A stretch of DNA of 64,000 nt, from IMG/VR virus record IMGVR_UViG_2700989507_000006. The stretch is one strand, 5' to 3'. Of this stretch, positions 20,839 through 64,000 are shown in pieces. The translations under genes and the position numbers were made by a program. The notes below the pieces were generated by a model, which worked only from the letters and a program-made list of their open reading frames with translations, did not search any database and was not told the DNA's origin. This DNA is from a virus (taxonomy: Duplodnaviria > Heunggongvirae > Uroviricota > Caudoviricetes). Numbering within the stretch: position 1 is the first letter of the stretch; every line of letters begins with the position of its first letter.

Positions 20839-21627
20839 ATGCTGGAAAAAGACTACCAGTTATCCGCATATAAAAAATTGTCCGCCGCCGGTGGGATGAA
20901 AACACCTGGTGCCATAACATCGGCACGAAACAGTGCTAACACAGCAAAACTGCTTGCAGAAGAATTGACCGGATTAATTCTGGATACAATTGTCTATCCC
21001 GACACTATTACCAGCTATGTTTCAACGATCAGAACAACCGCAACTGGTTTAACGAATATTGGAGGGCTGGCAACTCAGCACGCGGACCTGTTGGCTGGTT
21101 ATGCTGATCTGTCAATGCTCCTTCAACTCGATATTGGTTGGGATGTTTACTGTCGTGCTAATGAGCGAGAAGTTTCAGAACTGCCGATCTCTATTGCCAT
21201 TGGTGACGCGACTACAACGAAATCGCTTGAGGACTCTGTAAATGCGCTTAATACGTCGAGTTTAGTCGCTGCTATGGGGGACATTAACCAGACCCTTAAC
21301 ACAGGCTCAGGAAGCTCGTCAGGCTCTGATTCAGGTGGCGGCGCAGTCACTCCCCCACCAGCACTGACAGAACAACAAGTTGAAGCACTGAAGGAAGCAA
21401 CTGAACAATTTGGTGCTTTTTTCGACCAGACAACAGTACCGGTAGCAGCATTGCAACAGCAGTATGAACGAGCGAAGGAAAGCGCCAGCGTAGCCATAAC
21501 TGCTTATAACCATGCTATCGGTACCGCGCTTGCGGAAGCATCAGCAAATAAGGCCAGCACAGCCAGCGCAGTCGCCGCTTTGGTTCCTGATTCTGTTCTT
21601 GATGAATTAAACAAAGCGGCACAGTAA
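20839..21627 (+). CDS. hypothetical protein with Ser/Gly-rich linker
   Basis: ATG 20839 after AGGAG RBS (track ORF from 20782); low-complexity TGSGSSSGSDSGGG segment. Confidence 0.5.
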   Translation: MLEKDYQLSAYKKLSAAGGMKTPGAITSARNSANTAKLLAEELTGLILDTIVYPDTITSYVSTIRTTATGLTNIGGLATQHADLLAGYADLSMLLQLDIGWDVYCRANEREVSELPISIAIGDATTTKSLEDSVNALNTSSLVAAMGDINQTLNTGSGSSSGSDSGGGAVTPPPALTEQQVEALKEATEQFGAFFDQTTVPVAALQQQYERAKESASVAITAYNHAIGTALAEASANKASTASAVAALVPDSVLDELNKAAQ

Positions 21628-21666
21628 CAAAGGACTTCATTGATAATTTTTCTTCAGGAGGAAGAC

Positions 21667-22089
21667 ATGTCATTCTTTTCTACGTTAAAAACAGCTTTGT
21701 CTTTGAAGGAGAAACTTGCTGCTACTGGTGTTCTTGTTCTGATTTGCGCACTTGTTGGTGCCGGGTTTGCATGGGAACGTCATCAGCTAAAGCAAGCCTT
21801 GGATAAAATTGGCAGTCTTGATCAGGCTGTTAAGGAACGTGATAAGTCAATAATGGATCTTAACCAGACCATTGAGACGATGAACAAAGCAGATCAACAT
21901 TTTCACAGCCAGGAAGTGAAAAATGAATCAGAACAAGCCAAGTATGCTGACAGGCAAATGGAACGAAAAGCAGAAGTTCAGAAACAACTGGTTGCGGCGG
22001 GTAATGTTCGCCAGCGCATTCCTGCTGACACTCAGCGGTTGCTCCGGGAGTCGATCAGCGAATTTAACGCCGACGCCGACAAAGGTTAA
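21667..22089 (+). CDS. i-spanin-like protein (Rz-type: N-terminal TM helix plus periplasmic coiled coil)
   Basis: ATG 21667 after AGGAGG; TM segment LAATGVLVLICALVGAGFAW then charged helical region; embedded +1-frame lipoprotein gene near its 3' end. Confidence 0.5.
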   Translation: MSFFSTLKTALSLKEKLAATGVLVLICALVGAGFAWERHQLKQALDKIGSLDQAVKERDKSIMDLNQTIETMNKADQHFHSQEVKNESEQAKYADRQMERKAEVQKQLVAAGNVRQRIPADTQRLLRESISEFNADADKG

Positions 22090-22255
22090 CCACCCTGCCC
22101 CCAAAAGTGCATTTATGTGCAGAATGCCAGAGTTTAGCAGTGAATATTTTGATGATCTGCCAGCGTATATCCTCGATACAGAAACGATGCTGATGGGGAT
22201 TAATAGGAAGAATCGCAACGTTAATGATTACAACCGCGCTATCAGCGGTAACTAA
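22004..22255 (+). CDS. o-spanin-like outer-membrane lipoprotein (Rz1-type, overlapped)
   Basis: MFASAFLLTLSGCSG lipobox (LSGC), Pro-rich TPTPTKVNHPAPK; starts inside the i-spanin-like gene in another frame. Confidence 0.5.
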   Translation: MFASAFLLTLSGCSGSRSANLTPTPTKVNHPAPKSAFMCRMPEFSSEYFDDLPAYILDTETMLMGINRKNRNVNDYNRAISGN

Positions 22256-22266
22256 AAGGAAAAACT

Positions 22267-22626
22267 ATGTCCGATATGGAAATTGAAAAAGAGATTCTGG
22301 CCAAAGGCAAAACAGCACCACGCCTGACTCCTGATCACATCGAGAGTGTGATTGCCGAAGAGCATTATTTCACAGCTTTTGACGGCATTCGCGCTGCGCA
22401 TGAAGGCGTTCGTGAGGTGCTGTCTGTTCATCCCTCTACGCGTAGCCTGACCATCTGTGTCTTGGTGCTGTGCAATGGATTCATTGTTACCGGGGAAAGC
22501 GCCTGTGCCAGCCCTAAAAATTTCGACGCGGAGATTGGCCGTAAGGTGGCCCGTAAGAACGCCATTGAGAAAATCTGGCCGCTGGAAGGTTATCTGCTGA
22601 AGCAAAAGCTCAGCGAGCAGATTTAA
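22267..22626 (+). CDS. Gp49/Sf6-gp66-like phage protein
   Basis: 119 aa; CNGFIVTGESACASPKNFDAEIGRKVARKNAIEKIWPLEGY matches remembered Gp49-family core. Confidence 0.45.
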   Translation: MSDMEIEKEILAKGKTAPRLTPDHIESVIAEEHYFTAFDGIRAAHEGVREVLSVHPSTRSLTICVLVLCNGFIVTGESACASPKNFDAEIGRKVARKNAIEKIWPLEGYLLKQKLSEQI

Positions 22627-22696: not shown

Positions 22697-23098
22697 ATGT
22701 TTGCGGTTAAACAAGAAATAAACAACGCTACTTCTTTGTTCGAAATTGAGAGTATTACCGTTGGATATCCTGGGTCAGATCAATTTAAACAGGCGTTCGA
22801 GATTGCTGAAGCACTGGGTATCAAAACGCCTGATGCGATTGAATATATCCCTGTTGCGTACGAAGATGAGGAGATGACAAAGGCAATCGGGGAAGAGCAA
22901 ACTTTGAGTACAGAGCGTAAGGATGTACAGCGGGATGACTGTATCGCCGTGATTTGCTCTGGGGTTGCTTCTGAAATGTTCCCCGACCTCCCTGCCATAG
23001 GAGGTGTTGGTTATCAATTCCTCTACAAAGGTGATACGTTACGCATCTATACAAGTAGTTTGTTGATCGAAGAAGTAGGTACGGAAAACGACAACTAA
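22697..23098 (+). CDS. hypothetical acidic protein
   Basis: 133-aa ORF upstream of the plasmid origin. Confidence 0.45.
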   Translation: MFAVKQEINNATSLFEIESITVGYPGSDQFKQAFEIAEALGIKTPDAIEYIPVAYEDEEMTKAIGEEQTLSTERKDVQRDDCIAVICSGVASEMFPDLPAIGGVGYQFLYKGDTLRIYTSSLLIEEVGTENDN

Positions 23099-23139
23099 TT
23101 CGCTTCAACTCTTCACAGAAATCGGTCCTCAGTGGCCGG

Positions 23140-23420
23140 TTTTTCACTTATCCACATTATCCACTGGGTAGATCCAATAATTAGGTCCATACAGATCCCA
23201 ATTAGATCCATATAGATCCCTGATCGTTGCAGGCCGCGCCACGTCTGGCTTAGAAGTGTATCGCGATGTGTGCTGGAGGGAAAACGATGTGTGCTGGCGG
23301 GATAAAAATGTGTGCTGACGGGTTGCTAATGTGTGCTGGCGGGATATAGGATGTGTGCTGACGGGAAAGCCTGGGTAGTTATCACCACTTATAAAAGCTA
23401 TCCACATAATTCGGAAAAAG
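23140..23420. other. plasmid replication origin (oriR): DnaA boxes, GATC cluster, iterons, repA promoter
   Basis: Tandem DnaA boxes ttatccaca/ttatccact at 23148-23165 and again at ~23380-23408; five GATC within 23170-23226; five iterons follow. Confidence 0.8.
23265..23370 (+). repeat. five direct 19-bp iterons (incC-type), consensus ATGTGTGCTGGAGGGAAAA
   Basis: gatgtgtgctggagggaaaa, gatgtgtgctggcgggataaa, tgtgtgctgacgggttg, tgtgtgctggcgggata, atgtgtgctgacgggaaa. Confidence 0.85.
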
Positions 23421-23424
23421 TAAT

Positions 23425-24285
23425 ATGAATCAATCTTTTATCTCCGATATTCTTTACGCAGACATTGAAAGTAAGGCAAAAGAACTAACAGTTAATTCAA
23501 ACAACACTGTGCAGCCTGTAGCGTTGATGCGCTTGGGGGTATTCGTGCCGAAGCCATCAAAGAGCAAAGGAGAAAGTAAAGAGATTGATGCCACCAAAGC
23601 GTTTTCCCAGCTGGAGATAGCTAAAGCCGAGGGTTACGATGATATTAAAATCACCGGTCCTCGACTCGATATGGATACTGATTTCAAAACGTGGATCGGT
23701 GTCATCTACGCGTTCAGCAAATACGGCTTGTCCTCAAACACCATCCAGTTATCGTTTCAGGAATTCGCTAAAGCCTGTGGTTTCCCCTCAAAACGTCTGG
23801 ATGCGAAACTGCGTTTAACCATTCATGAATCACTTGGACGCTTGCGTAACAAGGGTATCGCTTTTAAGCGCGGAAAAGATGCTAAAGGCGGCTATCAGAC
23901 TGGTCTGCTGAAGGTCGGGCGTTTTGATGCTGACCTTGATCTGATAGAGCTGGAGGCTGATTCGAAGCTGTGGGAGCTGTTCCAGCTTGATTATCGCGTT
24001 CTGTTGCAACACCACGCCTTGCGTGCCCTTCCGAAGAAAGAAGCTGCACAAGCCATTTACACTTTCATCGAAAGCCTTCCGCAGAACCCGTTGCCGCTAT
24101 CGTTCGCGCGAATCCGTGAGCGCCTGGCTTTGCAGTCAGCTGTTGGCGAGCAAAACCGTATCATTAAGAAAGCGATAGAACAGCTTAAAACAATCGGCTA
24201 TCTCGACTGTTCAATTGAGAAGAAAGGCCGGGAAAGTTTTGTAATCGTCCATTCTCGCAATCCAAAGCTGAAACTTCCCGAATAA
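23425..24285 (+). CDS. repA: iteron-binding plasmid replication initiator
   Basis: 286-aa ORF between two iteron arrays; N-terminus MNQSFISDILYADIESKAKEL matches P1 RepA as I remember it. Confidence 0.9.
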   Translation: MNQSFISDILYADIESKAKELTVNSNNTVQPVALMRLGVFVPKPSKSKGESKEIDATKAFSQLEIAKAEGYDDIKITGPRLDMDTDFKTWIGVIYAFSKYGLSSNTIQLSFQEFAKACGFPSKRLDAKLRLTIHESLGRLRNKGIAFKRGKDAKGGYQTGLLKVGRFDADLDLIELEADSKLWELFQLDYRVLLQHHALRALPKKEAAQAIYTFIESLPQNPLPLSFARIRERLALQSAVGEQNRIIKKAIEQLKTIGYLDCSIEKKGRESFVIVHSRNPKLKLPE

Positions 24286-53934: not shown

Positions 53935-54219
53935 ATGCAGATTTTGATTTTTTTAATGTCCATTATTAGTGGAACCTATTTATTTCTTACTGGAGTTAGG
54001 CGTGGAGCTTATAAGCCATGTTTTTTACATTGGCTTGAAGCATGGCTGCTTGCCATAAAAGGTGGTTTTGTTGGTTTTTGTCTTGCAGAAGTTCAGTGGG
54101 GAAACTCATTTTTGAATGTGGTTGCTTTTTTGATATGTAGTTGGAATAGCCATTTTGTATTAAGAATAACCAAAATATGGGTTTTTCACTTGATTTACGA
54201 ATGTATTGGCAAATTATGA
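53935..54219 (+). CDS. small AT-rich membrane protein (three predicted TM helices)
   Basis: 94 aa; strong RBS GGGAGGAG 4 nt before ATG; F/L/W/C-rich; GC content visibly below flanking genes. Confidence 0.4.
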   Translation: MQILIFLMSIISGTYLFLTGVRRGAYKPCFLHWLEAWLLAIKGGFVGFCLAEVQWGNSFLNVVAFLICSWNSHFVLRITKIWVFHLIYECIGKL

Positions 54220-54230
54220 ACAACCAGATG

Positions 54231-54251
54231 AGAAGTTACTTTGCATACCAT
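54231..54251 (+). promoter_or_regulatory. late-promoter-like motif (agaagttactttgca + TACCAT)
   Basis: AAGTTACT box as at 47193; ~30 nt upstream of holin-like gene. Confidence 0.35.
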
Positions 54252-54279: not shown

Positions 54280-54609
54280 GTGCTTGACACACAGGAATTA
54301 GCTCCAGTTGCTATTGCGCTCCTGCTTTCAGTAATTGGTGGGATAGGCACGTTCCTGATGGATGTCCGAGACGGTCGCCAGTCTGGCAATTTGTTGGGAT
54401 TGGTTACGGAGATCTTTGTTGCAGTGACAGCTGGCGCGGTGGCGTACCTATTGGGGCAACACGAGGGCTGGGAGTTATCAATTACGTACTTAATGGTAAC
54501 GATAGCCAGCAATAACGGTCATGAGGTGATTTCAGGGATGAAACGAGTGAATATCGATAGCATTCTGAATGTTCTTACAAGTTTGGTGAAAAAGGGAGGT
54601 GGGAAATGA
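54280..54609 (+). CDS. lydA: holin-like membrane protein
   Basis: 109 aa, GTG start after AGGAGG; two to three hydrophobic helices and charged C-terminus. Confidence 0.55.
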   Translation: MLDTQELAPVAIALLLSVIGGIGTFLMDVRDGRQSGNLLGLVTEIFVAVTAGAVAYLLGQHEGWELSITYLMVTIASNNGHEVISGMKRVNIDSILNVLTSLVKKGGGK

Positions 54610-55049
54610 TTGGCTGGGGTGTATGCGTTCTTGCGTTAGCCTTAGCCGATCGCTATTTGCTAAAACGCAAGGACATCACGCATTTAGAACTTGGTGATGT
54701 GGAAATTAAACCGGGTTTCATCCGGGTGCCGTTCAAGTACCGGTCTAAATTCCCGTTTTTGCGCGGCGCAACGGTCAGATATTGGATCCGCGATGTTCAG
54801 AAGCCGACGACAGTGATTGAAGGTGAACAACGTTGTCTGACGTCGGCTGAACAGGGCGAAAACAGTGAATGGTTGTACATACCCACTGAATATATGGGTA
54901 AAGGAGAGCGACTGTGGCATTTCAACGTCATGGTTACGCATGGCGACTCGTTCATTAACCCGTTGTATCGGATTTTCCCTGTTACTCAGCAAATCCGCAG
55001 AAGTTACGTAATAAATCTCGCACAGGATGTGTCAGATGACGAAAAATAA
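54606..55049 (+). CDS. lydB: antiholin-like protein
   Basis: 147-aa ORF overlapping lydA stop by 4 nt; N-terminal hydrophobic segment. Confidence 0.5.
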   Translation: MIGWGVCVLALALADRYLLKRKDITHLELGDVEIKPGFIRVPFKYRSKFPFLRGATVRYWIRDVQKPTTVIEGEQRCLTSAEQGENSEWLYIPTEYMGKGERLWHFNVMVTHGDSFINPLYRIFPVTQQIRRSYVINLAQDVSDDEK

Positions 55050-63757: not shown

Positions 63758-63890
63758 AATGTATATCTTTGAAACGTAGCTAACAAGTGATTTGCATTAT
63801 CCTGTGCCTTCTAAAGGGATCGAGTCAGTCGGTATTGGCTGTGAATGGGTGTTTGTCCTGGAGCGTAAAAAATTCGCTTATGAGGTCTTT

Positions 63891-64000
63891 ATGAAGGGAA
63901 AAACAGCCGCAGGAGGCGGTGCAATTTGCGCTATCGCGGTGATGATTACCATCGTGATGGGTAATGGCAATGTGCGAACCAACCAGGCGGGGCTTGAGCT
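63891..64000 (+). CDS. small membrane protein, N-terminal part (runs off window end)
   Basis: ATG 63891 after GAGG RBS; MKGKTAAGGGAICAIAVMITIVMGNG hydrophobic start. Confidence 0.35.
   Translation, partial: MKGKTAAGGGAICAIAVMITIVMGNGNVRTNQAGLE

Follow-up and report, generated by a model that had tools for sequence, protein, structure and literature searches.

The question raised by positions 21667-22255 of the 64,000-nucleotide virus record IMGVR_UViG_2700989507_000006 (the whole stretch is referred to here as the window) is whether two overlapping open reading frames (ORFs), lying far from the holin and antiholin genes, encode a two-component spanin made up of an i-spanin, which is a protein of the inner membrane, and an o-spanin, which is a lipoprotein of the outer membrane. 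By its sequence, the window is a P1-like phage-plasmid. The region matched 19 phage and 741 plasmid records of P1 type, mostly from Escherichia and Salmonella, with Escherichia phage vB_EcoM-813R1 as the top match (99.1%, with the entire 1.3-kb query covered). The window runs in the reverse orientation of the P1 reference NC_005856, where the counterpart of 21667-22255 is exactly two genes: ppfA (P1_gp064, annotated with "possible periplasmic function") and mlp (P1_gp063, "membrane lipoprotein precursor," with the RefSeq name "Rz-like spanin"). PpfA and Mlp are each 98% identical to the P1 proteins, from which they differ by three and two substitutions, respectively. We conclude that a P1-type phage-plasmid very probably has its two-component spanin encoded at this locus; the pair is real, conserved and already known, and is an ordinary spanin candidate of a classic model phage.

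An earlier note on this DNA had described an Rz-type ORF together with a lipoprotein ORF that begins inside it in another frame and passes its stop, and both ORFs were found where the note had placed them (Table 1). The ppfA ATG lies 5 nt after AGGAGG (21656-21661), the strongest Shine-Dalgarno (SD) sequence in the region. The +1-frame ORF is open across 21920..22255, and mlp as annotated shares 167 nt with ppfA (86-167 nt depending on the start codon) and continues for 166 nt beyond the ppfA stop, an overlapped layout that was also present in all relatives. Since mlp outruns ppfA, the word "embedded" in the title of the earlier note is wrong, and the pair belongs to the "overlapped" class, as the body of that note says. 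The Rz-type character assigned to the first ORF, a transmembrane helix plus a coiled coil, held up. In Kyte-Doolittle profiles with 17-residue windows, PpfA exceeded 1.6 for window starts 13-22 and reached a maximum of 2.36 at start 17, giving a single N-terminal transmembrane helix (LAATGVLVLICALVGAGFAW). K8, K14 and K16 precede this hydrophobic segment and the other 104 residues are 35% charged; the predicted topology is N-in/C-out. Residues 41-79 then form heptads with L, I, V, I, I, D at the a positions and A, L, R, L, M, F at the d positions (permutation p = 0.0002), L/I/V/M/F making up 69% of a/d positions vs. 24% of the background. An AlphaFold2 model built from 19 homologues placed helices at residues 13-110 and 120-137, separated by a break at 111-119 in which G112, R115, R117 and P119 are invariant among the 19 homologues.

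The N-terminus of Mlp consists of an RR n-region and a hydrophobic h-region followed by the lipobox LSGC, which the earlier note had identified correctly, the codon of the lipidated Cys being TGC at 22040-22042. When a simple filter for a lipoprotein-type N-terminus was run on the window's 335 six-frame ORFs (50 aa or longer), the mlp ORF was the only one to pass. Under the sorting rule of the Lol pathway, lipoproteins without Asp at position +2 go to the outer membrane; the +2 residue of Mlp is Ser, and the mature N-termini across lineages are CSG, CSS or CSN, never Asp. Mature Mlp contains 6 Pro in 71 residues (8.5%), 4 of them within the first 25, so that the "Pro-rich" lipoprotein of the note does contain some Pro, if only to a modest degree. 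Besides the lipidated Cys, there is a second, periplasmic Cys at mature residue 27. Because Mlp has this one conserved periplasmic Cys and PpfA has none, a disulfide-linked dimer, if one forms, would be confined to the o-spanin. Conservation in Mlp is highest in a stretch (EYFDDLPAYILDTETMLMGINRKNRNVNDYNR) that lies outside ppfA.

Both proteins matched profiles of known spanin families. PpfA matched the "Rz-like spanin" family phrog_89 over residues 21-139 (2.6e-24), as well as the spanin PHROGs phrog_739 and phrog_214, and Mlp matched phrog_30284, also "Rz-like spanin" (4.4e-59), and phrog_456 (2.1e-5). The P2 proteins LysB and LysC belong to phrog_89 (5.8e-61) and phrog_456 (1.7e-31), respectively, and LysC also matches the phrog_30284 of Mlp (5.4e-4). 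By BLASTP, Mlp and P2 LysC were 38% identical over 68 aa (E = 9e-9), in an alignment that starts at LysC residue 1 and spans the signal peptide, the Pro/Thr-rich linker and the second Cys. The shared PHROGs and the BLASTP match between Mlp and LysC together suggest that the P1-type pair is a remote relative of P2 lysB/lysC with the same gene layout; taken with its NCBIfam LysC score below the cut-off (see below), these matches make Mlp a remote LysC relative rather than an equivalog. The P2 pair is the textbook example of overlapped spanins (Kongari 2018), and Table S1 of the same study lists P1 as "ovl," where gp064, with 140 aa and without a periplasmic Cys, is the i-spanin and gp063 the o-spanin. 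Bednarek et al. 2022 (PMC9025707) credit the identification of the P1 spanin genes to Summer et al. 2007 and describe ppfA and mlp as partially overlapping, in an operon unlinked to other lysis genes.

Conservation was assessed in 80 near-identical loci from IMG/VR (the scan retained near-identical loci only) and in five diverged P1-like lineages (L003-L006 and L011); a scan of a genome-contig collection gave one locus. The lipobox LSGC was present in 80/80 IMG/VR loci, and the 87-codon mlp frame was intact in 79 of them. PpfA is 47-62% identical to that of the window in four of the diverged lineages and 58% identical in L011 (protein P0082). The lipoboxes of the five, in the order given, read LNGC, LVAC, LSAC, LVAC and LSAC, with the Cys kept and the +1 frame open in every lineage, and the second Cys, in the motif FMCRMPEF, was kept in all of them and is nearly invariant in alignment A7. 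Loss of the lipobox Cys had been named in the earlier note as a result that would speak against a spanin; with the Cys kept in all 80 close and all 5 diverged loci, the spanin reading withstood that test. Together with the PHROG spanin profiles, the relation to P2 LysB/LysC and the listing in the literature, this conservation supports the reading of the two ORFs as a spanin pair.

The substitution patterns point the same way. Within the 150 nt past the ppfA stop, 24-30 of the 37-47 differences from the window fell at mlp codon position 3, and post-overlap identity of Mlp was 76-84%, compared with 48-53% for PpfA residues 1-85, the part without mlp-frame overlap. This third-position bias, combined with the high identity, indicates purifying selection on Mlp, while the differences in the true overlap were fewer and spread evenly over codon positions, indicating dual constraint. 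The gene order rdgC-uhr-upfC-upfB-ppfA-mlp-(variable)-repA was shared by all five diverged lineages, with parA next in four, and a survey of 77 P1-like phage-plasmids places mlp and ppfA among 21 extremely conserved genes. Gene anatomy, conservation and homology are observations.

For topology, complex formation and membrane fusion, we reason by analogy with the lambda Rz/Rz1 and P2 LysB/LysC paradigms. On this model, PpfA would be anchored in the inner membrane by its one N-terminal helix, with a mostly helical domain of ~100 residues in the periplasm, and Mlp would, after export, receive its lipid at the lipobox Cys, undergo cleavage by signal peptidase II and, with Ser at +2, be sorted to the outer membrane. 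The conserved C-terminal part of Mlp would be likely to contact the conserved C-terminal helix of PpfA. The resulting complexes would span the periplasm, held inactive by the peptidoglycan mesh until LydA/LydB and the signal-arrest-release (SAR) endolysin Lyz had degraded the wall; they could then bring about fusion of the inner membrane with the outer one, removing the last barrier to phage release.

Several points weigh against a spanin function. Direct similarity between PpfA and known i-spanins was not significant, in that BLASTP and hhalign comparisons with single P2 LysB and lambda Rz sequences gave nothing significant and the PHROG profiles were the only link. With the NCBIfam models, PpfA scored 18.3 bits for LysB (TIGR03495, cut-off 92.75) and Mlp scored 14.4 bits for LysC (NF038368, cut-off 27). 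The PpfA model is of moderate confidence (mean predicted local distance difference test, pLDDT, 68.7), and the Mlp model, which predicts a C-terminal helix, is of low confidence (pLDDT 55.6). The sole Cys of PpfA, C27, lies inside the transmembrane helix, leaving none in the periplasm, unlike in lambda Rz. A search with AAGTTACTT-N4-TAnnnT, which recovered the late promoter LPdar and others, found no convincing P1 late promoter at 20300-21670. The P1 spanin pair is described as experimentally unverified (Bednarek et al. 2022, PMC9025707), and genome-wide CRISPR interference (CRISPRi) found both ppfA and mlp to be non-essential, with plaque formation intact. The CRISPRi result carries no weight in this matter because spanins are expected to be dispensable under laboratory conditions, namely in shaken cultures (Bednarek et al. 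2022, PMC9025707). In Pfam, neither protein matched a spanin family; the hits were sub-threshold coiled-coil noise and a generic LPAM_1 signal.

The position of the genes lends itself to another explanation, namely that PpfA and Mlp are envelope proteins with a non-lysis role, for example in superinfection exclusion or in an envelope function of the plasmid-prophage, and that their likeness to spanins is mere resemblance. The plasmid replicon does lie close to the pair, lydA/lydB and lyz being far away, and upstream of the pair there is no canonical late promoter, the P1 record having only predicted sigma-70 promoters there; to this can be added the non-essentiality of both genes by CRISPRi and the unverified status of the P1 pair noted in Bednarek 2022. 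Mere resemblance does not account well, however, for profile-level homology to the P2 LysB/LysC families coupled with the same overlapped layout, and dispensability in shaken laboratory cultures is what is expected of spanins. The genes directly upstream, moreover, are virion baseplate parts and not plasmid functions: cryo-electron microscopy of P1 (2026, PMC12810830) identified UpfC as the tip of the baseplate spike and UpfB as a tripod on the spike tip. Given these upstream baseplate genes and the gap of only 39 nt, ppfA-mlp is better seen as the end of a unit of virion genes than as a neighbor of the replicon. What lies between mlp and oriR is variable cargo, which makes the closeness to oriR look incidental; the survey of 77 P1-like phage-plasmids describes the stretch from repA to upfA as a hypervariable cargo site. 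Overall, we consider a non-lysis role improbable.

We give even less credence to the idea that the +1 ORF is a chance by-product of ppfA, or a decaying relic, with ppfA as the sole functional gene. Simulations do lead one to expect open codons 1-23, an ATG near 21923 and a start at codon 24, public collections include frameshifted PpfA::Mlp fusions of 195 aa, and several records omit or truncate mlp. This idea is nonetheless already contradicted by the purifying selection on the mlp frame, seen in the 166 nt past the ppfA stop, where the protein is 76-84% identical and changes are concentrated at codon position 3. A chance or decaying frame would likewise not be expected to stay intact over 87 codons in 79/80 IMG/VR loci, to keep both the lipobox Cys and the second Cys in lineages with 47-62% PpfA identity, or to encode a homolog of P2 LysC. 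Its probability is very slight in our view, and the two-component spanin remains the preferred explanation of the locus.

As for the expression of this putative spanin, we infer that upfC-upfB-ppfA-mlp is probably one transcription unit. At the position of P1 Op68/Odmt, a site on the - strand at 20448-20464 agrees in 16 of 17 positions with what we take to be the consensus of the C1 operator. About 45 nt downstream of this operator and upstream of upfC lies a TAnAAT hexamer (20508-20513), and conservation of both elements extends to lineages with about 60% nucleotide identity. Beside the hexamer, neither a good -35 nor a late-promoter -22 box was found. A 6/8 late-promoter match at 21629 was rejected, as it is not conserved in relatives, and a P1vir transcriptome gave no interpretable timing for ppfA/mlp.

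The start of mlp affects the precursor only, mature Mlp being identical whichever codon is used. From ATG 21923, translation would yield 110 aa with a 39-residue signal peptide; this codon is preceded by AGGA (AGGAGG in three relatives), and in most lineages it has a stronger SD than the codon at 21992. From TTG 21992, which has a poor SD, the signal peptide would be 16 residues long (MRRVMFASAFLLTLSG, followed by the lipidated C), and the N-terminus of P2 LysC aligns from this codon. The homologous codon is ATG in 4/5 diverged lineages and AGG in L011, and at the PpfA residue whose codon lies across it, V, H and D occur. Codons 1-23 of the long form evolve like ppfA-only sequence, and synonymous-codon simulations showed that, given the PpfA protein, chance largely suffices for the open +1 frame in these codons, for an ATG near 21923 and for a start at codon 24. 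Conservation alone therefore gives neither start statistical support. We withdrew TTG 21992 as a firm start because of the AGG in L011, the stronger upstream SD and the chance expectation in the simulations.

These observations also bear on whether expression of the pair is unusual, with co-transcription with upfC/upfB taking the place of an Lpa-dependent late promoter and with mlp being translated from two starts. Here the promoter may be the TAnAAT hexamer beside Op68, and the starts may be ATG 21923, with its atypically long signal peptide, and either TTG 21992 or ATG 22004. Dual starts, if true, could tune the ratio of o-spanin to i-spanin. We regard this scenario as unlikely.

Turning to the wider neighborhood, upfC (20546..20830; PAAR-like, phrog_281) overlaps the start of upfB (20782..21627). 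Both genes were long annotated as "unknown protein function," and several records start upfB later, at ATG 20839 (MLEKDYQ), which is preceded by AGGAG. On the other side, oriR begins about 872 bp after mlp, which is what "next to the plasmid origin" in the earlier note amounts to, and two small genes intervene. This layout, with a Gp49-family gene and a phrog_1453 gene, is also found in vB_EcoM-813R1 and many plasmids. The distance of ~32 kb that the note gave to the holin gene at 54280 is accurate, the distance to lydA being 32,025 bp; lyz is 41.6 kb away, and there is no lysis cassette around ppfA-mlp. The gene between cin and lydA occupies the position of lydC, reported to be variable among P1-like elements; a tblastn search with LydA gave no similarity at 53935..54219. 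At the end of the window, 63891-63998 encodes 36/36 residues identical, by tblastn, to what we take to be the P1 Lyz sequence. As lyz is cut there, lydD and lydE lie outside the window. A late-promoter-like site, AAGTGATTT-N4-TATCCT, is present at 63785-63803, some 90 nt before lyz begins.

Table 1. Coordinates of the ppfA-mlp pair, its sequence features and surrounding genes in the window.
Feature	Position	Strand	Basis or remark
upfC + upfB	20546..21627	+	P1 annotation; co-oriented, directly upstream of ppfA with a 39-nt gap
ppfA, i-spanin candidate, 140 aa	21667..22089	+	ORF, P1 identity, phrog_89, Kongari 2018 Table S1
Single N-terminal transmembrane helix of PpfA, about residues 17-36	21715..21774	+	Kyte-Doolittle
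Heptad-repeat (coiled-coil type) segment of PpfA, residues 41-79	21787..21903	+	Heptad permutation test
Predicted break in PpfA, residues 111-119 (AGNVRQRIP)	21997..22023	+	DSSP of AlphaFold2 model; +1 frame encodes Mlp signal peptide
mlp as annotated in P1, o-spanin candidate, 110 aa	21923..22255	+	+1 frame relative to ppfA
Alternative shorter mlp, 87 aa from TTG 21992; further ATG at 22004	21992..22255	+	Relatives, P2 LysC alignment
Lipobox LSGC	22031..22042	+	Sequence, conservation
Second, periplasmic Cys of Mlp (FMCRMPEF)	22118..22120	+	Conservation, P2 LysC alignment
Most conserved part of Mlp	22142..22237	+	Substitution patterns
Gp49-family gene	22267..22626		PF13876, 1.1e-33; with the phrog_1453 gene, replaces P1 upfA
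phrog_1453 gene	22697..23098		Between mlp and oriR
oriR (DnaA boxes, GATC sites, incC iterons)	about 23127..23368	+	Homology to annotated P1 oriR
repA	23425..24285	+	Follows oriR
lydC-type holin, 94 aa, between cin and lydA	53935..54219	+	phrog_1527, 2e-35
Late promoter LPdar	54233-54251		Exact match to P1 LPdar sequence
lydA holin	54280..54609	+	phrog_1527, 4.3e-49
lydB antiholin	54606..55049	+	phrog_1898, 3.6e-85
lyz 5' end (SAR endolysin), cut by window end	63891..64000	+	tblastn

Published labels and database records for the pair are uneven. Bednarek et al. 2022 (PMC9025707) and a table in a 2025 preprint on P1vir and hfq name ppfA as the o-spanin and mlp as the i-spanin. The transmembrane helix in PpfA and the lipobox in Mlp assign the opposite roles, in agreement with Kongari 2018 Table S1. 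In the JL22 record (L009, 1316..1456), only the 46-aa tail past the ppfA stop is labeled "Rz1," so the annotated protein is without signal peptide and lipobox, and in the record of 813R1 (L002) mlp is not annotated. One IMG/VR locus (L066, IMGVR_UViG_3300045988_158986) has an mlp frame of 95 rather than 87 codons, owing to a C-terminal extension. A ppfA 98% identical to that of the window was found on a 5.9-kb contig (L010, JAFAFU010000017.1) of a metagenome-assembled genome labeled "Bacillota bacterium"; the contig most likely stems from an enterobacterial P1-like element and was binned in error.

Public data also contain 195-aa PpfA::Mlp fusions (P0034, P0042, P0048, P0050, P0057, P0072 and P0077), in which the frame shifts from ppfA to mlp at six or more positions in the overlap, one of them the A5 run at 21918-21922. 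These shifts were deduced from protein sequences, and 1-nt deletions would explain them. The fusions come mostly from automated read assemblies, occur in 0/80 IMG/VR loci, and may be either sequencing errors or real loss-of-function alleles. Beyond correct annotation, the findings matter little, the unlinked position of the pair being a known oddity of the scattered lysis genes of P1; their practical value lies in the many P1-like phage-plasmid records that omit, truncate or mislabel mlp.

Compared with P1 itself, the window has the same synteny upstream of the pair (rdgC/hrdC-uhr-upfC-upfB-ppfA-mlp), the same oriR-repA-parA downstream, and the same location of the spanin genes, unlinked from lydA/lydB and lyz. 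It differs in that P1 carries upfA downstream of mlp, whereas the window has the Gp49-family and phrog_1453 genes instead. In P2 lysB/lysC, the o-spanin gene likewise starts inside the i-spanin gene, in its 3' part and in the +1 frame, and continues past its stop, and the i-spanins are of nearly the same size, with 140 aa in PpfA and 141 aa in LysB. Mlp differs from LysC in its C-terminal half, and the P2 genes belong to a lysis cassette, in which they immediately follow holin Y, endolysin K and lysA, whereas the P1-type pair lies 32-42 kb from the holin and endolysin genes. PpfA and Mlp have no significant sequence similarity to lambda Rz and Rz1. Lambda Rz has periplasmic cysteines that form disulfides, whereas PpfA has none, and lambda Rz1 contains about 25% Pro, compared with the 8.5% of mature Mlp. 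Lambda Rz1 is also wholly embedded in Rz, while mlp extends beyond ppfA. What the lambda pair does share with the P1-type pair is its design: a type II inner-membrane protein with a hinged helical periplasmic domain, together with a small lipoprotein of the outer membrane whose gene is read in the +1 frame.

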